A DNA stretch of 8,632 bases from a virus (Duplodnaviria > Heunggongvirae > Uroviricota > Caudoviricetes). The position numbers and the translations under genes are program-made. The stretch is taken from the IMG/VR virus record IMGVR_UViG_2671180603_000016, one strand, 5' to 3'. How positions within the stretch are numbered: the first letter of the stretch is position 1; every line of letters begins with the position of its first letter. Positions 1 to 8,632 of this stretch are shown here, piece by piece. The notes beneath the pieces are model-generated. The model had not been told where the DNA came from. It saw nothing but the letters and a program-made list of their open reading frames with translations, and ran no database searches.

Positions 1-578
1 GCGGCGGTAATCCTCCGGCATTTTCCCTGACACCGGACGGAAAACTGACCGCTAAAAATGCAGATATCAGTGGCAGTGTGAATGCGAACGCCGGGACGCT
101 CAACAATGTCACAATTAATGAGAACTGTCAGATTAAGGGGAAACTGTCAGCCAACCAGATTGAAGGCGATATAGTCAAAACAGTGGGTAAGGCTTTTCCG
201 CGGGACTCCCGGGCACCGGAGCGGTGGCCATCAGGGACCATTACCGTCAGGATTTATGACGATCAGCCTTTTGACAGGCAAATTGTTATTCCGGCGGTGG
301 CATTCAGCGGCGCTAAACATGAGCGGGAGAATAACGATATTTATTCGTCATGCCGCCTGATAGTACGGAAAAACGGTGCTGAAATTTATAACCGTACCGC
401 GCTGGATAATACGCTGATTTACAGTGGTGTTATTGATATGCCAGCTGGTCGCGGCCACATGACGCTGGAGTTTTCGGTGTCAGCATGGCTGGTGAATAAC
501 TGGTATCCCACAGCAAGTATCAGCGATTTGCTGGTTGTGGTGATGAAGAAAGCCACCGCAGGCATCAGTATCAGCTGA
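1..578 (+). CDS. J: Host specificity protein J (central tail fibre), C-terminal ~190 codons; 5' end lies outside the window
   Basis: Frame 3 is open from position 3 to the stop at 576-578 ([38 protein letters not shown]...[12 protein letters not shown]...[10 protein letters not shown]). From memory this co-linearly resembles the C-terminal end of lambda gpJ. Gene order J-lom-stf-tfa supports the call. Confidence 0.85.
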
Positions 579-596
579 ATTTTATAACCCATATAC

Positions 597-621
597 GGGC
601 GCCAGAAATGGCGCCTTTTTT
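597..621 (+). terminator. Rho-independent terminator downstream of J
   Basis: Perfect 6-bp GGCGCC stem (598-603 / 610-615) with loop AGAAAT, followed by TTTTTT (616-621), 19 nt after the J stop. Confidence 0.55.
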
Positions 622-645
622 ATTGCAGAAAAGCGAGAGGTAATT

Positions 646-1245
646 ATGCGTAAAGTTTGTGCAGCCATTTTGTCCGCAGCCATCTGTCTGTCCGTATCCG
701 GTGCGCCTGCATGGGCGTCTGAACATCAGTCCACACTGAGCGCGGGGTATCTTCATGCCCGTACGAACGCTCCCGGCAGCGATAATCTGAACGGGATTAA
801 CGTGAAATACCGTTATGAGTTTACGGACGCGCTGGGGCTGATTACGTCCTTCAGTTATGCCAATGCTGAGGATGAGCAAAAAACGCACTACAGCGATACC
901 CGCTGGCATGAAGATTCCGTGCGTAACCGCTGGTTCAGCGTGATGGCGGGGCCGTCTGTACGCGTGAATGAATGGTTCAGCGCGTATGCGATGGTGGGTG
1001 TGGCTTACAGCCGTGTGTCGACTTTCTCCGGGGATTATCTCCGCGTAACTGACAACAAGGGGAAAACGCACGATGTGCTGACCGGGAGTGATGGCGGTCG
1101 CCACAGCAACACGTCTCTGGCGTGGGGGGCTGGCGTGCAGTTTAACCCGACCGAATCCGTGACCATTGACCTTGCTTATGAAGGTTCCGGTAGTGGTGAC
1201 TGGCGAACGGATGCATTTATTGTTGGTATCGGATACCGTATCTGA
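646..1245 (+). CDS. lom: Outer membrane protein Lom (Ail/Lom/OmpX-family beta-barrel), with signal peptide
   Basis: ATG at 646 preceded by GAGAGG. N-terminus MRKVCAAILSAAICLSVSGAPAWA has a signal-peptide shape. Family motifs GINVKYRYE, VMAGP, AYEGSGSGDWRTD and a beta-strand C-terminus are present. Position immediately after J is as in lambda. Confidence 0.92.
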   Translation: MRKVCAAILSAAICLSVSGAPAWASEHQSTLSAGYLHARTNAPGSDNLNGINVKYRYEFTDALGLITSFSYANAEDEQKTHYSDTRWHEDSVRNRWFSVMAGPSVRVNEWFSAYAMVGVAYSRVSTFSGDYLRVTDNKGKTHDVLTGSDGGRHSNTSLAWGAGVQFNPTESVTIDLAYEGSGSGDWRTDAFIVGIGYRI

Positions 1246-1351
1246 CAACAGACGCCGATTTATCTTCTGTAAATATTGTTATGATACGCAGGTTCATCCA
1301 CCTTATGGGGTGAACTGCGTTTGAGGAAACGTAAAGTTACACTGTCCTGAA

Positions 1352-1382
1352 GCCCGTGGCGTCACTGCTGCGGGCTTTTTTT
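1352..1382 (+). terminator. Intrinsic terminator between lom and the stf-like ORF
   Basis: 10-bp stem GCCCGTGGCG / TGCTGCGGGC (three G-U pairs), loop TCAC, then a 7-T run 1376-1382. The stf-like ATG follows 15 nt later. Confidence 0.5.
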
Positions 1383-1396
1383 ATTGGTGGAAAAGT

Positions 1397-2461
1397 ATGA
1401 CAGTAAAAATTTCTGGCGTGCTTAAAGATGGCACAGGAAAACCAGTACAGAACTGCACCATTGTGCTGAAGGCCAGACGAACCAGCAGCACGATGGTGGT
1501 GAACACGGTGGCCTCTGAAAATCCGGATGAAGCCGGACGTTACAGCATGGATGTTGAGCATGGTCAGTACAGCGTCACCCTGCTGGTTGAAGGTTTTCCG
1601 CCTTCACATGCCGGGACCATTACCGTCTATGAAGGTTCCAGACCAGGTACGCTGAATGATTTTCTCGGTGCCATGACGGAGGATGATGTCCGACCGGAGG
1701 CACTGCGCCGCTTTGAGCAGATGGTGGAAGAGGTGTCACGTAACGCCTCCGCGGTTGCACAGAATACGGCAGCCGCGAAAAAATCAGCCAGCGAGGCGGC
1801 AACTCATGCAACCGATGCTGCAGCCTCAGCACGTGCCGCCAGCACGTCAGCCGGACAGGCCGCGTCGTCGGCTCAGTCAGCGTCTTCCAGCGCAGGAACG
1901 GCATCGACAAAGGCCCGTGAAGCAGCAAAAAGTGCTGCTGCAGAGTCATCAAAAAGCGCGGCAGCTACCAGCGCCAGTGCCGCGAAAACGTCAGAAACGA
2001 ATGCCGCAGCATCACAAAAATCGGCAGCCACTTCTGCATCCACAGCGACCACGAAGGCGTCAGAAGCTGCCACCTCGGCACGGGGTGCGGCGGCCTCAAA
2101 AGAGGCAGCGAAATCTTCAGAAACGAATGCATCATCAAGTGCCAGTAGTGCAGCTTCCTCGGCAACGGCGGCAGGAAATTCCGCGAAGGCGGCAAAAACG
2201 TCCGAGACGAACGCTAAGTCTTCTGAAACAGCAGCGGGACAGAGCGCCTCAGCTGCGGCAGGTTCAAAAACAGCGGCTGCATTATCTGCCAGTGCCGCGT
2301 CAACAAGTGCCGGGCAGGCCTCAGCCAGTGCCACCGCCGCCGGAAAATCGGCAGAAAGCGCCGCATCATCCATCCGCGTAACTGACAATAAGGGGAAAAC
2401 GCACGATGTGCTGACCGGAAGTGATGACGGTCGCCACAGCAACACGTCTCTGGCGCACTGA
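1397..2461 (+). pseudogene. Truncated side-tail-fibre paralog (N-terminal ~325 codons of Stf) fused in frame to an internal lom fragment; chimeric ORF of 354 codons
   Basis: ATG 1397 with GGTGGA Shine-Dalgarno. Codons 1-325 are co-linear with, and very similar to, the N-terminus of the full stf at 2560 ([22 protein letters not shown]...), with small in-frame indels. At about 2373/2374 the sequence switches to 82 nt matching resident lom 1041-1122 with 3 mismatches (RVTDNKGKTHDVLTGSDDGRHSNTSLA), then stops. The fibre C-terminal domain is absent. Confidence 0.75.
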
Positions 2462-2521: not shown

Positions 2522-2548
2522 AGCCCGCCGGTTCAGGCGGGCTTTTTT
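2522..2548 (+). terminator. Intrinsic terminator immediately upstream of stf
   Basis: 8-bp stem AGCCCGCC / GGCGGGCT, loop GGTTCA, then TTTTTT (2543-2548). The stf ATG at 2560 follows after GTGGGGTGAAT. Confidence 0.55.
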
Positions 2549-2559
2549 GTGGGGTGAAT

Positions 2560-5340
2560 ATGGCAGTAAAGATTTCAGGTGTACTGAAAGACGGCACAGG
2601 AAAACCGGTACAGAACTGCACAATCCAGCTGAAAGCAAAACGTAACAGCACCACGGTGGTGGTGAACACGCTGGCCTCAGAAAATCCGGATGAAGCCGGG
2701 CGTTACAGCATGGACGTTGAGTACGGTCAGTACAGCGTTATTCTGTTGGTGGAAGGATTCCCGCCGTCACATGCCGGGACCATCACCGTGTATGAAGATT
2801 CCCGACCCGGTACGCTGAATGATTTTCTCGGTGCCATGACGGAGGATGATGCCCGTCCGGAGGCACTGCGCCGTTTTGAGCTGATGGTGGAAGAGGTGGC
2901 GCGTAACGCGTCCGCGGTGGCACAGAACACGGCAGCCGCGAAGAAATCAGCCAGCGATGCCAGCACATCAGCCCGTGAGGCGGCAACCCATGCGACTGAT
3001 GCTGCAGATTCAGCACGTGCAGCCAGCACGTCAGCCGGACAGGCCGCTTCGTCGGCTCAGTCAGCGTCTTCCAGCGCAGGAACGGCATCAACAAAGGCCA
3101 CTGAAGCCTCAAAAAGTGCTGCCGCTGCAGAGTCCTCAAAAAGCGCGGCGGCTACCAGTGCCGGTGCGGCGAAAACGTTAGAAACGAATGCGGCAGCGTC
3201 ACAACAATCAGCAGCCACTTCTGCATCCACCGCGACCACGAAAGCGTCAGAAGCTGCCACCTCAGCCCGGGATGCGTCGGCTTCAAAAGAGGCGGCAAAA
3301 TCATCAGAAACGAACGCATCATCAAGCGCCAGTAGCGCAGCTTCCTCGGCGACGGCGGCTGCAAATTCTGCGAAGGCGGCCAAAACGTCCGAGACGAACG
3401 CCAGGTCTTCTGAAACGGCAGCGGGACAGAGTGCCTCAGCTGCGGCAGGCTCAAAAACAGCGGCTGCGTCGTCTGCCAGCGCCGCGTCAACAAGTGCCGG
3501 GCAGGCCTCAGCCAGTGCCACCGCCGCCGGAAAATCGGCAGAAAGCGCCGCATCATCCGCTTCAACAGCCACAACGAAGGCTGGCAAAGCCACTGAGCAA
3601 GCCACTGCAGCAGCGAGGTCTGCTTCTGCAGCAAAAACCTCTGAAACAAATGCAAAGACTTCAGCAGACAATGCTGCTTCCTCTAAGGCAGCAGCCGCAT
3701 CGTCAGCCAGTTCAGCGGCGTCATCGGCATCATCTGCGTCTGCTTCAAAAGATGAGGCGACCAGACAAGCGTCAGCAGCGAAAGGTAGTGCCACGACAGC
3801 AACAACGAAAGCATCAGAGGCGGCAGGCAGTGCGACGGCTGCATCTCAGAGCAAAGTTGCTGCTGAATCCGCGGCAACGCGCGCCGAGACAGCAGCAAAA
3901 CGGGCAGAGGATATTGCATCCGCCGTGGCGCTGGAGGATGCGAGCACGACGAAAAAGGGGATAGTACAGCTCAGCAGTGCGACCAACAGCACTTCCGAGT
4001 CACTGGCGGCAACGCCAAAAGCGGTTAAGGCGGTAATGGGTGAAACGAACAAGAAAGCGCCCTTAAATAGTCCTGCACTGACCGGAACGCCAACAACACC
4101 AACTGCGCGACAGGGAACGAATAATACCCAAATCGCAAGCACGGCTTTCGTTATGGCTGCGATTGCCGCCCTTGTAGATTCGTCACCTGATGCACTGAAC
4201 ACGCTGAACGAGCTGGCTGCGGCGCTGGGCAACGACCCGAATTTTGCGACCACCATGACTAACGCGCTTGCGGGTAAGCAACCGAAAGATGCCACCCTGA
4301 CGGCGCTGGCCGGACTTACTACTGCGGCAGGCAAGTTTCCGTATTTTACGGGGAATGATGTCGCCAGCCTGGCAACCCTGACAAAAGTCGGGCGGGATAT
4401 TCTTGCGAAATCGACCGTTGCTGCCGTTATCGAATACCTCGGTTTACAGGAAACGGTAAACAAGGCTGGTAACGCCGTTCAGCGTTCCGGCGATAAAATG
4501 ACCGGAGAACTGAAAATTGGCACGGTGAATGCGCTGCGAATTTTCAATGATACCTTCGGTCTAATTTTCCGTCGTTCAGAAGATTTTCTTCATTTCATTC
4601 CGACGGCTGAAGGACAAGGCGAAAACGGTAATATCGGCCCATTAAGGCCATTCGCTATAAATCTGAGAACAGGTGCTATATCTGTCAGCCACGGGGCCAA
4701 AATTAAAGGAGGTCTAGCTATTGGAGCTACTGATAACGCACTGGGTGAAAACTCCATTGTTCTGGGAGATAACGACACCGGATTTAGGCAAGATGGAGAT
4801 GGTATTATTAGCTTCTATTCAAATGGTTCGCGCATCGGACATATTGATGAGTTAGGATTACATCTTTATAAAGATATTGAATCTAATGGCAGCAATTTTA
4901 GATTAAAAAGTAATTACCGCCACCACATTACATTCGCCAACGAAGACGGAAGAATTCGTATGTTTTTGTGGAAAGATAACGGTGGTGATGGTGTTCATAT
5001 TAATAACGGTTCAGATGGTGGTGGTGATTTCATTTTTAAAACAGATGGGGGATTTGCGCTGGGAAGTGGTGCGCAAGTTGCGTCTAGTGGCGATATTTAT
5101 GGTTCAGTGTGGGAAAACAACTGGTTAAGCACATGGCTGCATAATCATGTCGTTCGGGATATTCGTCTTGGCAGCATTGAATATAAAAACGTATGGCGCG
5201 ACTACGGCTTTGGCGATGCGTCAGGTTATGTTTTAACAGCCGCAATTAACAGCAATGCGGATGATATTGTCGACACTGTTGCCAGAAGGCCAATTCAGAA
5301 ATTGATTGGGGGAATATGGTACAACGTGGGGAGTGTTTAA
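2560..5340 (+). CDS. stf: Side tail fibre protein Stf (926 aa): lambda-type N-terminal attachment domain, long Ala/Ser/Thr-rich shaft, Mu S / P2 H-like variable C-terminal domain
   Basis: ATG 2560 ([26 protein letters not shown]...) with GGGGTG SD; an in-frame GTG at 2554 is less likely. Continuous ORF to TAA 5338-5340. GC content drops and sequence style changes after the crossover site at 4427-4452. Ends [18 protein letters not shown], mirrored by the alternative cassette. Confidence 0.9.
2935..3910 (+). repeat. Low-complexity Ala/Ser/Thr-rich shaft region of stf built from degenerate short direct repeats (approximate bounds)
   Basis: Reiterated units such as AAAACGTCAGAAACGAATGC / AAAACGTCCGAGACGAACGC (KTSETNA) and [13 protein letters not shown]. 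The same region recurs in the truncated copy at about 1770-2370. Open antisense frames here follow from GCN codon bias. Confidence 0.6.
4427..4452. repeat. Left crossover site of the invertible segment (gix/pix-like, 26 bp), inside stf
   Basis: TTATCGAATACCTCGGTTTACAGGAA. Matches the reverse complement of 7343-7368 at 22/26 positions, with identical central dinucleotide. From memory, close to the Mu gix site. Confidence 0.75.
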
Positions 5341-5341
5341 G

Positions 5342-5869
5342 ATGATGCACCTGAAAAATATTAAGGCCGGGAATCCGAAAACACCGGAACAATACCAGCT
5401 AACTAAAAAAGCGGGCGTGGTATGGCTCTTTTGCGAAGATGGCAAAAACTGGTATGAGGAACAAAAGAATTTTCAGCCAGACACCATAAAAATTGCTTAC
5501 GATGAGAACAACATCATCGTTGCTGTCAGTAAAGACGTTTCAACTATTAATCCTGAAGGGCTAAGCATAGTTGAAGTTCCTGATATTACGGCAAATCGTC
5601 ACGCAGACAATAACGGAAAATGGATGTTTCTGGATGGTAAAGTAGTAAAGAGGGAATATACAGAACAGGAACTGCAACAACAGGCCGAATCACAAAAGGC
5701 CGCATTGCTTTCCGAAGCTGAATCAGTCATCCAGCCGCTGGAACGCGCTGTCAGGCTGAATATGGCAACAGACGAGGAACGCACACGACTGGAAGCATGG
5801 GAACGCTACAGTGTTCTGGTCAGCCGTGTGGATACGGCAAATCCTGAATGGCCACAAAAGCCTGAATAA
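5342..5869 (+). CDS. tfa: Tail fibre assembly protein (Tfa/U-type chaperone), partner of the expressed stf end
   Basis: ATG 5342 lies 1 nt after the stf stop, with GGGGAG SD. N-terminus [23 protein letters not shown] is paralogous to the inverted tfa' ([22 protein letters not shown]). C-terminus ...[25 protein letters not shown] is Tfa-like. Confidence 0.85.
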
Positions 5870-5874
5870 AAATT

Positions 5875-5894
5875 AAGGCCCGATAGCGGGCCTT
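5875..5894. terminator. Bidirectional stem-loop between convergent tfa and tfa'
   Basis: Perfect 8-bp stem AAGGCCCG / CGGGCCTT with loop ATAG, in the 28-nt gap between the two convergent stop codons. No strong U-tract on either side. Confidence 0.4.
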
Positions 5895-5897
5895 CTC

Positions 5898-6431
5898 TCA
5901 TTCTGGTTGTTCGGGAAACGTTACTGGCAGGCTGGAGGTGTCTGTGGATTCAACCTTCTGCGCATAGAGCATCCACTCGGTTAATTTTTGTTTATTCTCA
6001 TCGGAAATGATGCCCAGCTGTAGCTGAGAGTCCCACAGCTGGGTTTTATCCCTGACGAGCTGCAGCAGGCTCTGCTTTTCATTTTCCGCTTGTTGCCTTT
6101 GCTCTTCCTCGGTATAAGTTCGCTTTATCACCGCACCATCTTTGAACATCCAGTTGCCCGAAATATCAGCCCGGCGATTTGCTGTAATATCAGGCAACTC
6201 AACGACACTTAAACCTTCTGGATTAATTGCTGATACATCCTTGTCTATAGCAATAATTATTCCCTCAACTGTGTAAGCCAGTTTTATTGTATCCTCCTGA
6301 AAGTTTTTTAATTCCTCATGCCAATTTTTTCCATCTTCGGACCATAACCAGATAACATCAAAATTCTTTGTTAGCTGGTATTGTTCAACGGTTTTTGGAT
6401 TACCTGCGACAATGTTTTTTAAATGCTGCAT
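5898..6431 (-). CDS. tfa: Tail fibre assembly protein, alternative copy (tfa', U'-type) belonging to the silent cassette
   Basis: 177-codon ORF on the minus strand. Its ATG (6429-6431) follows the stop of the alternative stf end by 2 nt. Tfa-family N- and C-terminal motifs are present. Confidence 0.85.
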
Positions 6432-6433
6432 GA

Positions 6434-7360
6434 TTATACCTGCGATACGTTATACCATGTTCCGTTAATTAACTTTTGTATTGGTCTGAATACTGCCGGA
6501 TCATCACCATCGACTTCACCGATAATACCAAGCCCCGTGATTACATGGCCTGATTTTTCATACATCACGCCTTTCTTCATGGTCTGAACAACTCGTGTGC
6601 CAAGTCTGACATCTCTCACATAGCGGGAATCAAAGTTACCGTAATCCGAGGGATTAACACGTCCCGTAATATTTATGGTTTTATTACTTTGAATGCTTCC
6701 GGAGACAAAGCGCATAACATGGACGTTATTAGCATAAACATCCAGATTACCATCGCCTTTTTGTTTAAAGCCCGTGTCATTATCACCCAATACAATCGAA
6801 TTACCGCCAAGAGCACTGGATGTTCCGATACCCAGTGCACCATTCAGTTGACCACCAGATAACGGCAGTGCACCAACATCTCCTGCTGAAGGTTTTCTGG
6901 TGGTGTAAAATTCGGACCAGTCGGCTTCAAAACCATAACCATCACGGGCTGAACGATAAAAAATACCGCCATTTTTATAATTAATCCGAAACTGAGCTGC
7001 AGGACAACTTCCTTCTCCCATATAAAAATGAATAATTAACGTTGATGCACCACTAATAGTTGCGTTATAGGCTCCGCTACTCCAGTTCCATCCAACTGCT
7101 TTATCATTCGCAACGGTGCTTCCTGTTTTCCCTAAGGCAAACGCACCAACATGACTTGCTTTTAATGTGATATCGGAGGAACCATCAAAAGCCACATTGC
7201 TTATTTTCCTGGCAGTTTTTAATTTTGCAGCTGTAGAAGCATTGCCGGATAGTTCACCAGAAAGGCCACCGCTGAATGTTTGTCGATTAGTCCAGGTATT
7301 CGCTGTACTGAGTAACGGTATTTTCTCCCCGCTTGTGCCGAGTTCTCGTAAACCGAGGTT
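6434..7360 (-). CDS. Alternative stf C-terminal variable cassette (Sv'), start-less; expressed only after inversion fuses it to the stf constant part
   Basis: Minus-strand frame is open from the crossover site (7360) to TAA at 6434-6436 with no plausible own start or SD. Predicted fusion reads ...[22 protein letters not shown]...[28 protein letters not shown].... Shares [20 protein letters not shown] and terminal [17 protein letters not shown] with the expressed stf end. Confidence 0.75.
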
Positions 7361-7368
7361 TTAGATAA
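7343..7368. repeat. Right crossover site of the invertible segment (gix/pix-like, 26 bp)
   Basis: TTCTCGTAAACCGAGGTTTTAGATAA, the inverted partner of 4427-4452. About 10 further bp of stf constant-region homology (GCCATTATC) lie on its outer side. Confidence 0.75.
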
Positions 7369-7422
7369 TGGCGGTTTCTGGCCTGCATGGCATGATTTGT
7401 GCTTTTGGACGGGAGATTCAGC

Positions 7423-7656
7423 GTGCTGATTGGCTATGTAAGGGTATCAACAAATGACCAGAATACAGACCTGCAACGAAACGCTCTTGTTTGTGCAGGA
7501 TATGAACAAATATTTGAAGATAAATTAAGCGGAACAAGGACAGGCCGACCTGGATTAAAACGTGCTTTAAAGCGCCTTCAAAAAGGTGACGCACTGGTTG
7601 TCTGAAAACTGGACTGACTGGGTCACTGTATGCGGCATCTTGTCGTGCTGGTGGTG
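7423..7656 (+). pseudogene. pin: DNA invertase (Pin/Gin/Hin serine recombinase) remnant: N-terminal catalytic region only, with premature stops
   Basis: GTG 7423 with GGGAG SD. Encodes (M)LIGYVRVSTNDQNTDLQRNALVCAGYEQIFEDKLSGTRTGRPGLKRALKRLQKGDALVV, then in-frame TGA at 7603 (Trp position in Pin/Gin) and TGA at 7615 (Arg position), then LGHCMRHLVVLVVEA. The helix-turn-helix C-terminal half is absent. Confidence 0.8.
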
Positions 7657-7749
7657 GAAGCCTAGAAAAAGTATCGGGTGTTGCTGAACCGTGTTGATAC
7701 ATCAACTGCACCTGATATTGAGTGGCCTACGAACCCTGTCAGGGAGTAA
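7657..7749 (+). pseudogene. tfa: Relic of the 3' end of a lambda-type tfa, fused to the invertase remnant
   Basis: Reads [33 protein letters not shown]-stop (TAG 7663, TAA 7747-7749). From memory, lambda Tfa ends ...[30 protein letters not shown]. Distinct from the two intact tfa copies in the window. Confidence 0.6.
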
Positions 7750-7763
7750 TCATTGGGATTATG

Positions 7764-7796
7764 CCGCAGCACGTCTTAAGCAAGAACGTGCTGCGG
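7764..7796. other. GC-rich stem-loop between the tfa relic and the 3' end of the methyltransferase gene
   Basis: 10-bp stem CCGCAGCACG / CGTGCTGCGG with a 13-nt loop. A T-run (7807-7812) lies 10 nt downstream on the + strand; no U-tract on the - strand. Possible weak or bidirectional terminator. Confidence 0.3.
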
Positions 7797-7803
7797 TTGG
7801 ATG

Positions 7804-8472
7804 CTATTTTTTCCCTGAAGCGGAAAACATTACTACAGTACCTTGAACCTTGGTTTTAACATTCTCGAAATGCTCTGAGAGTATATGTGTTAAGCCTTCT
7901 TCGGAATCTTTTGTGTTTGAAAAGATGCCTTTCTGATTGTAAATGCGCATCAGTTTTTGACCGAAGCTATTGTGCACAACTCCATCGCCAAGAATTGTGG
8001 CTCCGTATAGAGTTCCATCATCAGTTAAGGCCTGCGCCGCATTGCGTATTACACAGCTTTTTGTAGATATATTTCCAGGCAGGCAGTGAAGAAGGTAAAA
8101 CATGGAAATGGAATCAAATTGACCATGTAACGCCGCGGGATAAGGTTCAAAAACATCATGGCTAATTTTATGTTTAATTTTTGATTCCCCAGCCCTTGTA
8201 GATGCCGCGTTCAGGCTAGCTTCGTTCAAATCCATTAAAGATATCAGACTACTCTCAGGTACGTGAGTAAGGTAAAACCCAGTTCCAACACCAATATCCA
8301 GATGGTTGTTACCTAAATGTTCCAGAAAGTGTGGAAGAAGGTGTTCCTTTGTAGGACATCCCCATGCAAGCCGATTTGATACTCCCAAAACCCACCAGTC
8401 ATAAAGCTTTAGGGTAAGTGGTGTGTAAATTTTAGCCCCATCATCTGTGTTTTTTTTCATTAATTTCACCAT
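7804..8472 (-). CDS. Class I (Rossmann-fold) SAM-dependent methyltransferase, substrate unknown; likely prophage cargo
   Basis: 222-codon ORF. Motif I HLDIGVGTGFY, acidic post-I residue (ISLMDLN), motif II-like FDSISMFYLLHCLP, motif III-like LTDDGTLYGAT. No DPPY/NPPY or PCQ/ENV DNA-methyltransferase motifs. A second ATG at 8458-8460 (MKKNT...) has a better SD-like GGTGA and may be the true start. AT-rich relative to the tail genes. Confidence 0.8.
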   Translation of the reverse strand: MVKLMKKNTDDGAKIYTPLTLKLYDWWVLGVSNRLAWGCPTKEHLLPHFLEHLGNNHLDIGVGTGFYLTHVPESSLISLMDLNEASLNAASTRAGESKIKHKISHDVFEPYPAALHGQFDSISMFYLLHCLPGNISTKSCVIRNAAQALTDDGTLYGATILGDGVVHNSFGQKLMRIYNQKGIFSNTKDSEEGLTHILSEHFENVKTKVQGTVVMFSASGKK

Positions 8473-8501
8473 ATTATAGTTTTATTTGTGAATTAAATCA
8501 A
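8473..8501 (-). promoter_or_regulatory. Candidate sigma70 promoter for the methyltransferase gene
   Basis: On the minus strand: TTGATT (rc of 8496-8501), 17-nt spacer, TATAAT (rc of 8473-8478), abutting the first ATG. A start near 8466 would give a very short leader before ATG 8458-8460. Confidence 0.35.
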
Positions 8502-8528
8502 TTATGGCGATGAATTACAAGGGGTTAA

Positions 8529-8632
8529 ATGCTGCCGCAGCATAGCGATATTGAAATAGCCTGGTATGCTTCGATACAGCAGGAGCCGAATGGCTGGAAG
8601 ACCGTCACCACACAGTTCTACATCCAGGAATT
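8529..8632 (+). CDS. Hypothetical protein, 5' end only (continues beyond the window)
   Basis: ATG 8529 preceded by AAGGGG at -6 to -11. Open for 34 codons to the window edge (MLPQHSDIEIAWYASIQQEPNGWKTVTTQFYIQE). Not recognised. Divergent from the methyltransferase gene. Confidence 0.35.
   Translation, partial: MLPQHSDIEIAWYASIQQEPNGWKTVTTQFYIQE

Follow-up and report, generated by a model that had tools for sequence, protein, structure and literature searches.

The 3' end of a lambdoid-prophage side tail fibre gene, stf, very probably harbours a DNA inversion module of the Gin/Cin/Pin family, homologous to the G segment of phage Mu and the C segment of P1 and flipped in trans. We refer below to the whole stretch of DNA analyzed, 8,632 nucleotides long, as the window. 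What it holds is an orphan substrate of the Gin/Cin/Pin/Hin family and not a complete system: two inverted 26-bp sites with the same central dinucleotide are present, as are alternative in-frame fibre ends with their chaperones, but the window has no intact serine invertase beside them. A sequence-only reading of this DNA had proposed a Mu G/P1 C-type switch. The sites, the cassettes and the swap of fibre ends all withstood our analysis, but the switch proved to be orphaned, left with a 60-codon invertase remnant that this reading did not mention.

Crossover sites, cassettes and carrier fibre

The left gix-like crossover site (4427-4452, plus strand, 26 bp, TTATCGAATACCTCGGTTTACAGGAA) has its central TC at 4439-4440, and the right one (7343-7368, minus strand, 26 bp, TTATCTAAAACCTCGGTTTACGAGAA) its central GA at 7355-7356. 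As had been claimed from the sequence alone, the two match each other in inverted orientation at 22 of 26 positions with identical cores, the common 12-bp core ACCTCGGTTTAC including the central TC. The close match to Mu gix claimed in the earlier reading was also confirmed, with 24/26 identical positions for the left site and 23/26 for the right one. When the whole window was searched with gix at no more than 3 mismatches, exactly these two sites, 4427-4452 and 7343-7368, were retrieved, and gix matches were found in 0/200 dinucleotide shuffles of the window. The alignment to related sites that had been suggested gave 21/26 for cixR of P1, no match within 8 mismatches for cixL, and 18/26 for the e14 site against the left site. 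The hixL sequence of Salmonella presumably matches the window sites at 21-22/26. We also considered a shufflon-like system with a third crossover site and rejected it, as only two sites are present in the window at up to 8 mismatches.

The inverted match is not by itself distinctive. Since further inverted 26-mers with at least 22/26 identity lie inside the tfa/tfa' paralogues of the window, the score alone does not single out the site pair, whereas gix identity and position do. By blastn, the central dinucleotide of the left site is co-linear with the annotated Mu G-segment boundary at 31966 and that of the right site with the boundary at 35025. The matches include the recombinase core, a point on which the sequence-only reading had made its proposal depend.

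The invertible segment spans 4439-7356, that is 2918 bp counting both central dinucleotides. In the present orientation, stf extends over 2554-5340 (plus strand, 928 aa). Its constant part, Sc, runs up to the crossover (2554-4438, plus strand) and contains the Pfam domain phage_tail_N (PF08400, E=1e-71), while the variable tip cassette A, Sv (4441-5340, plus strand), is an open reading frame providing the C-terminus of the 928-aa Stf, with Pfam gp37_trimer at Stf residues 792-857 and a last stretch of about 65 aa showing 42% identity to the Mu S/S' ends. The chaperone gene of cassette A, tfa (5342-5869, plus strand; Pfam Caudo_TAP, E=8e-37), encodes a homologue of Mu/P1 U (82% and 85% amino acid identity, respectively). 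A G+C-rich, terminator-like hairpin (5875-5894; an 8-pair stem with 6 G-C pairs in the terminator scan) separates it from the convergent gene tfa' (5898-6431, minus strand; Caudo_TAP, E=5e-34), the chaperone gene of cassette B and homologue of Mu/P1 U' (85% and 84% identity, respectively).

Cassette B, S'v (6434-7354, minus strand; Pfam gp37_C), is start-less and silent in the present orientation. It has no upstream start, its frame extends without interruption from the crossover to a stop at 6434-6436, and the nearest stop upstream, at 7361-7363, falls in the outer half of the right site; the cassette shares 84% identity over 93 aa with Mu S'v. In-silico inversion of 4439-7356 yielded an uninterrupted in-frame Stf of 935 aa, versus 928 aa for the native one. 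The open reading frames and Pfam domains thus bear out the proposed layout of two cassettes, an stf end plus tfa against tfa' plus a start-less stf end in frame with the crossover, and the in-silico flip together with the homologies supports the reading that inversion exchanges both the fibre tip and its chaperone.

That the switch is carried by a lambda-type side tail fibre was likewise borne out, by PF08400 and by identity to lambda Stf. The window includes the 3' end of a lambda J-type tip attachment gene (78-578, plus strand; Pfam Ig_GpJ_C, E=6e-40), followed by lom, encoding an Ail/Lom outer membrane protein (646-1245, plus strand; Pfam Ail_Lom, E=1e-124), and the gene order J-lom-stf-tfa is that of lambda. 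The tail fibre N-terminal domain, this gene order and the similarity to lambda Stf place the locus in the lambda-type Stf/Tfa group. Stf shares 80.7% identity with lambda orf-401 over its residues 3-354 and 74% with the start of lambda orf-314 over its residues 568-633; the stretch just ahead of the crossover, residues 501-633, shows 77% identity to residues 326-458 of P1 S. The lambda similarity stops at EYLG, which is the crossover.

Invertase remnant and related systems

Downstream of the right site lies a pseudogene for a gin/pin-like serine recombinase (7423-7605, plus strand; Pfam Resolvase), reduced to its first 60 codons and ending at a TGA. It covers only positions 2-69 of the 145 of Pfam Resolvase. 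Read in frame, it has the stop codons TGA, TGA and TAG in place of the W, R and R of Gin and diverges after that; its homologue is annotated in RefSeq as 'recombinase family protein, incomplete'. The remnant is fused to the 3' fragment of another tfa gene (7675-7749, plus strand; translation ending in NRVDTSTAPDIEWPTNPVRE and a stop), which marks a deletion scar and whose counterparts in EC958, U12A and E66 are annotated as 'tail fiber assembly protein, missing N-terminus'. The region delimited in the sequence-only reading ended at 7368, short of this remnant. An intact invertase, with a Resolvase catalytic domain and a C-terminal HTH, was looked for and none was found in the window. With no working invertase of its own, the segment is an orphan switch that could be flipped only by a related enzyme encoded elsewhere in the genome.

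The 5' end of the remnant contains a stretch, 7441-7512 (plus strand), that aligns with the annotated enhancer of P1 cin (31678-31749 of the P1 record) and is identical to Mu gin at 71 of 72 positions and to P1 cin at 54 of 72. From this alignment we infer that it could be the equivalent of the Fis-dependent recombinational enhancer. The window also contains an extra stf copy that is truncated and fused to a lom fragment. This fusion and the deletion scar at the invertase are signs of prophage decay, so that the fibre may no longer serve a phage.

The closest parallel among phages is offered by the G segment of Mu, where the sites are placed alike relative to the fibre and invertase genes and where two convergent tip and chaperone cassettes, one of them start-less, are also found; the right site and the gin 5' end are 92.5% identical at the nucleotide level between Mu and the window. 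Unlike in Mu, the constant part of the fibre is of the lambda Stf type and not of the Mu S type, tip A has little in common with Mu Sv, and the invertase gene is a pseudogene. The C segment of P1 (cix, cin) and the Min region of p15B have the same architecture as the window. P1 shares with it the U and U' proteins (84-85% identity) and has its annotated enhancer in the cin 5' end, but its cix sites are more distant, as seen above, its invertase gene stands on the opposite side of the segment and the segment is longer, at 4.2 kb. The e14 P segment of E. coli K-12 (pinE, stfP/stfE, tfaP/tfaE) likewise belongs to the Gin family of invertible tail-fibre segments and is carried by a defective lambdoid prophage. 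Unlike the window, e14 keeps an intact pinE; its segment is only 1.8 kb long and its site is the poor match to the left site given above. The e14 P segment flips in culture (PMC4272514), and PinQ has been shown experimentally to act on it, a case of trans inversion across prophages (PMC12529663).

An orthologous locus has been described by Forde et al. (2014) in prophage Phi4 of E. coli O25b:H4-ST131 EC958 (PMC4134206). Its two 26-bp sites are identical to ours, Phi4_5prime to the left site and Phi4_3prime to the right one, and it shares with the window the lambda-type J-lom-stf context, the truncated invertase with its tfa-fragment fusion, a downstream SAM methyltransferase and a location next to trpA/ompW. 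The invertase was reported as 'severely truncated' and both orientations were seen in PacBio reads; the authors proposed that the invertase of Phi1 acts in trans (PMC4134206), and we follow them in regarding it as the probable trans-acting enzyme in EC958. The two loci differ in segment length (3106 bp in EC958 vs 2918 bp in the window) and in distal cassette A (window 4827-5347), which has no match in EC958, with an overall identity of 88-92%. The A-orientation fibre is annotated as incomplete in EC958, whereas neither fusion frame is interrupted in the window; the extra truncated stf copy belongs to the window, and an IS21 element in lom to EC958.

Both orientations in natural genomes and the alternatives

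The segment is invertible, as both orientations occur in nature, with the crossover in the core, for this very allele in other genomes and for its orthologue. The genomes L010 and L016 carry the same allele at 99.8% identity, L010 in the native orientation and L016 inverted, with half-sites swapped exactly as a crossover in the core predicts. For the orthologue, the ST131 isolates U12A and U13A show such an inversion: the flanks are 100% identical and a 3.1-kb segment is precisely inverted with its half-sites swapped. These isolates come from one patient and are 26 core SNPs apart (PMC6692316). The inversion is not mentioned in that paper on recurrent-UTI isolates (PMC6692316); we found this difference in the present analysis. 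Across complete E. coli genomes, a right junction linked to this truncated-invertase scar has the native form in 239 genomes and the flipped form in 143. Prophages found in different lineages and at different places in the chromosome share the scar. None of the complete E. coli genomes covers at least 80% of window positions 4000-8632 in one piece, so that the exact combination of these cassettes with the duplicated stf copy is absent from that set; the exact 928-aa Stf has no record in public assemblies, and the closest relatives are L010/L016, E66 and EC958.

Since an intact invertase is absent from the window, the segment may be frozen in the source strain. One could then assume that it is a relic, a once-active switch that no longer inverts in this strain for want of a compatible invertase. 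We regard this as possible but rather unlikely. It would account for the pseudogene state of the cis invertase and for the rearrangement scars of the prophage, and several related genomes (L009 and L011-L015) do carry such a frozen remnant, in which an IS element has taken out the left site together with part of cassette A. However, the window retains both sites, both cassettes and both chaperones intact, along with the putative enhancer stretch; in ST131, identical sites are flipped although the invertase is truncated in the same way; and L010 and L016 carry this very allele in opposite orientations. Furthermore, E. coli/Shigella prophages commonly encode Gin-family invertases, which act in trans (PMC12529663).

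Another hypothesis would be that the orphan switch has been kept by the host as a domesticated, trans-controlled and phase-variable surface or defence function. We consider it improbable. It fits with the integrity of both fusions, the chaperones, the sites and the putative enhancer, and with a scar shared across sites and lineages. For example, a chimeric Stf may keep other phages from adsorbing, as has been reported for PinQ with the e14 P segment, and the driver may be whichever resident prophage supplies an invertase.

It is very improbable that the segment is inverted without a site-specific invertase, through RecA-dependent homologous recombination of its inverted repeats (the 26-30-bp sites or the internal tfa/tfa' and Sv/S'v paralogues). 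The sequence-only reading had pointed to inverted paralogous stretches inside the segment that could allow inversions or deletions independently of the recombinase. Such stretches do exist (5287-5628 vs 6145-6487, 68.5% identity over 346 nt; 4750-4804 vs 6748-6802, 76% over 55 nt), but they are weak, and inverted repeats would yield inversions instead of the proposed deletions. In E. coli, RecA requires about 20-30 bp for efficient recombination, whereas perfect inverted identity extends over no more than 12 bp at the sites and 17 bp within the segment, which makes homologous inversion unlikely. Moreover, in every natural isomer examined the breakpoints fall within the 26-bp sites and the half-sites are exchanged about the core; none lies in the internal paralogues. 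Finally, the view that the site pair reflects chance or coding similarity and has no recombination function could appeal to the other inverted 26-mers of the tfa and tfa' paralogues. It is contradicted by the shuffles (no gix match in any of the 200, and an inverted pair of at least 22/26 in 0/40) and by the coincidence of the sites with the Mu G boundaries, and it is refuted by the natural recombinants U12A/U13A and L010/L016.

Significance of an orphan fibre switch

We propose, as the most probable reading, that the segment is a Gin/Cin/Pin-family module flipped in trans. A related serine invertase from elsewhere in the genome, for example from another prophage, would pair the two gix-like sites and cut at their central TC/GA dinucleotide, assisted by Fis bound to the putative enhancer in the invertase remnant, and the 2.9-kb segment would flip. 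In the present orientation, the constant part of stf is joined to tip A, with tfa behind it; after inversion, the constant part would be joined in frame to tip B, followed by tfa', which would alter the receptor-binding end of the fibre.

Switching of tail-fibre tips by invertases has been textbook knowledge since Mu and P1. The locus type is also already known from EC958 Phi4, where the sites are the same, the invertase is truncated and inversion is documented in reads (PMC4134206). For both reasons, our observation carries little weight as a discovery. It matters for annotation, since the start-less cassette and the 60-codon recombinase are parts of one orphan switch and not separate pseudogenes, and for assembly, since two orientations are to be expected at this locus. 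It also serves as a natural reporter for invertases acting in trans from one co-resident prophage on another.

Crossover sites and the cassettes between them

The two 26-bp inverted sequences that the sequence-only reading had likened to the Mu gix site lie at 4427-4452 (+) and 7343-7368 (-), where they match each other at 22 of 26 positions and share an identical 12-bp core that includes the central TC. A search of the window with Mu gix, allowing up to 3 mismatches, returned exactly these two sites and nothing else. No gix match was obtained in any of 200 dinucleotide shuffles, and no inverted pair at 22/26 or better was found in 40 shuffled windows. Alignment to known sites confirmed the resemblance, with 24/26 and 23/26 identities to gix, 21/26 to P1 cixR and 18/26 to one e14 site, and blastn placed the central dinucleotides of the window on the G-segment boundaries annotated in the Mu record. 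Further inverted 26-mers at 22/26 or better were also observed inside the segment, between 5378-5604 and 6169-6395. They arise because tfa and tfa' are paralogues, so that a plain inverted-repeat score alone cannot single out the crossover sites.

The full stf gene (2554-5340, 928 aa) crosses the left site and ends in tip A (4441-5340), followed by tfa (5342-5869). Convergent with the latter is tfa' (5898-6431, -), next to a start-less fibre 3' end carrying tip B (6434-7354, -). When the segment 4439-7356 is inverted in silico, the constant part of stf reads in frame into the start-less cassette to give a protein of 935 aa, as had been proposed from the sequence. In the window, a stop lying two codons outside the crossover (7361-7363) closes the frame of this cassette, which is thus expressible only after inversion. 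In both arrangements, 1-2 nt separate the stf stop from the start of the chaperone gene, as read from the sequence.

Natural inversion in related genomes

The window alone cannot show flipping, but related sequences can. Its exact tfa protein is encoded in many public genomes. One related locus, CP032523.1, has the orientation of the window and the same two sites, whereas in another, CP179990.1, a 2.95-kb segment 99.8% identical is inverted relative to its flanks. The sites of the latter read TTATCGAATACC-TC-GGTTTACGAGAA and TTATCTAAAACC-TC-GGTTTACAGGAA: the outer half-sites have not moved and the inner ones have been carried along with the cassettes, which fits a crossover at the core. An orthologous locus, with sites identical to those of the window, is found in Escherichia coli ST131. 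Full-length matches at 100% identity to its flipped right junction, built in silico from strain EC958, were obtained in at least 60 complete genomes, among them JJ1886, JJ1887 and U12A, and the native junction is present in EC958, U13A, U14A and U15A. Overall, the right junction is native in 239 genomes and flipped in 143, each joined to the same truncated-invertase scar. One pair, U12A and U13A, comes from one patient and differs by 26 core SNPs (PMC6692316); between them the flanks (3326 and 4285 nt) are 100% identical while the 3.1-kb segment is precisely inverted with its half-sites swapped.

These observations agree with the description of prophage Phi4 of EC958, which holds exactly these two 26-bp sequences around a 3106-bp invertible segment found in both orientations in PacBio reads from one culture (Forde et al. 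2014, PMC4134206). Because the Phi4 invertase gene is "severely truncated", the authors of that description concluded that inversion occurs in trans, and named as a possible agent the Phi1 invertase, which has nearly identical sites (PMC4134206). Experiments with PinQ, which inverts the e14 P segment, have since demonstrated such action in trans between prophages (PMC12529663). Altogether, the segment of the window is very probably flipped in trans, as a true invertase substrate.

Some relatives have lost this capacity. In several IS-rich genomes encoding the identical tfa (L009 and L011-L015), the module is cut short by an IS element at the equivalent of window position 5052; the loss takes in stf, the left crossover site and some of cassette A, and these copies are truly frozen remnants. 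The window retains both sites, but its segment could nevertheless be frozen in the particular source strain, an outcome that we regard as possible although rather unlikely.

Loss of the invertase and the likely route of inversion

Downstream of the right site, a short recombinase ORF lies beyond the start-less fibre end and before a methyltransferase gene. This gin-like frame runs for 60 codons and covers positions 2-69 of the 145 of Pfam Resolvase. It is then interrupted by a TGA at a Gin Trp position, and by a second TGA and a TAG at Gin Arg positions. After a 9-nt gap, the remnant merges with the 3' end of a tfa gene, whose translation terminates in VDTSTAPDIEWPTNPVRE before the stop. Most of the catalytic domain has been lost, and the DNA-binding domain altogether. 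In other genomes, RefSeq labels the homologous ORF an incomplete recombinase and places after it a tail fibre assembly protein lacking its N terminus. Judged by this sequence, the module's own invertase is dead. On the other hand, the cis enhancer is probably retained: over the 72 nt that align with the one annotated for P1 inside the 5' end of cin, the window matches Mu gin at 71 positions. The segment is thus an orphan substrate with a full set of cis elements and cargo, devoid of its enzyme.

The scar, made of the invertase remnant and the tfa 3' fragment and followed by the methyltransferase, was observed at 7606-7749 in the window and in two related public loci (L001, 8089-8415; L003, 7967-8293). 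It is present both in prophages adjoining trpA/ompW (EC958, U12A, CP032523.1) and in one adjoining potB (strain E66), which indicates that it is old and has spread, with the tail-end module, between prophages integrated at different sites.

The mechanism is most likely classical Gin-family inversion. A serine invertase of this family, made elsewhere in the genome, would synapse both sites with a Fis-bound enhancer and cut at the central dinucleotide; after strand rotation, inversion would exchange the expressed fibre tip together with the chaperone gene that immediately follows. The sites, frames, homologies, loss of the invertase and natural isomers are all observed, whereas the identity of the acting enzyme, its presence in the source strain, the working of the enhancer and continued use of the fibre are inferred.

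An alternative raised from the sequence was homologous recombination between paralogous stretches within the segment. Such inverted stretches do exist (5287-5628 versus 6145-6487 at 68.5%; 4750-4804 versus 6748-6802 at 76%), but their longest perfect inverted match is 17 bp. Since RecA recombination in E. coli normally needs about 20-30 bp, this route is not supported, and no breakpoints in these paralogues were seen among the natural isomers examined (CP032523.1/CP179990.1 and U12A/U13A). Deletions through them were rejected, since inverted repeats recombine to inversions.

Origin of the module and its place among fibre switches

ORF calling and Pfam searches identify the window as the right-hand end of the tail region of a lambdoid prophage, with the 3' end of a J-type gene (78-578) and lom (646-1245) preceding stf and tfa in lambda's own order. 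Pfam recognises a prophage tail fibre N-terminal domain (E=1e-71) in the constant part of the fibre, and this part has 80.7% identity with lambda orf-401 and 74% with the initial 66 residues of orf-314. This similarity stops at the motif EYLG, exactly at the crossover site; the description of a Mu/P1-type switch grafted onto a lambda-type side tail fibre is therefore accurate.

A parallel can be drawn with the Mu G and P1 C segments, which work alike and to which the segment of the window is homologous in its sites, chaperones and invertase remnant. Against the Mu genome, blastn aligned 4427-4481 with the left end of G, 5342-6487 with U, U' and the end of S' (81.7%), and 7348-7613 with the right end of G and the first 190 nt of gin (92.5%). 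Amino-acid identity of the tfa product is 82% with Mu U and 85% with P1 U; for tfa', the values are 85% (Mu U') and 84% (P1 U'). A 93-aa block of tip B is 84% identical to Mu S'v, and the kinship of tip A to known tips is confined to its ends.

An extra, truncated stf 5' copy (1397-2461) was also observed, a 354-aa ORF with phage_tail_N whose 3' end enters a copy of an 83-nt lom piece (2373-2455 versus 1040-1122, 96% identical). Window 1-2371 and 2537-8632 map to overlapping stretches of CP032523.1 (up to 6217 and from 5216), a pattern indicative of a partial tandem duplication, some 1.0-1.3 kb in size, relative to that locus. The copies, spaced 1163-1333 nt apart, agree at only 85-91%; such divergence suggests that two related prophages recombined unequally, and speaks against a recent duplication. 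The fibre shaft contains a long, internally repetitive Ala/Ser/Thr-rich stretch at 2950-3950 (stf residues about 130-470), and another at 1780-2370. It holds many short direct-repeat families (D4-D11) resembling repeated elements annotated in P1 S and, given 14 gaps relative to CP032523.1, these are a likely source of allele length variation. Directly past the dead invertase, flanked by tfa fragments, lies a class I SAM-dependent methyltransferase gene (7804-8472, -, 222 aa), kept at the same place in every related locus seen; it looks like prophage cargo.

The Phi4 segment of EC958 is an ortholog of that of the window, from which it differs in length (3106 versus 2918 bp) and in the distal cassette A (4827-5347), which has no match in EC958. 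In the "A" orientation, stf is annotated as incomplete in EC958 (L001, 3061-4557) and U13A (L007, 1561-3795). For the flipped isolate U12A, joining to cassette B yields a complete ORF of 941 aa. ST131 seems to encode an intact fibre in just one of its two switch states, whereas in the window, unlike in Phi4, both fusion frames are intact.

Invertible fibre tips on lambdoid or defective E. coli prophages have long been known, for example in e14 (PMC4272514), and such systems are the subject of a review by Sandmeier (1994), as cited in PMC4134206. Both the switch type and the locus are already known. The sole reading with some novelty, in which the orphan switch persists because it serves the host, with control exerted in trans, seems to us improbable. 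Compared with the Gin-type family, the segment departs in one defining feature, since the intact adjacent invertase has been lost. It fits that family best as an orphan substrate.
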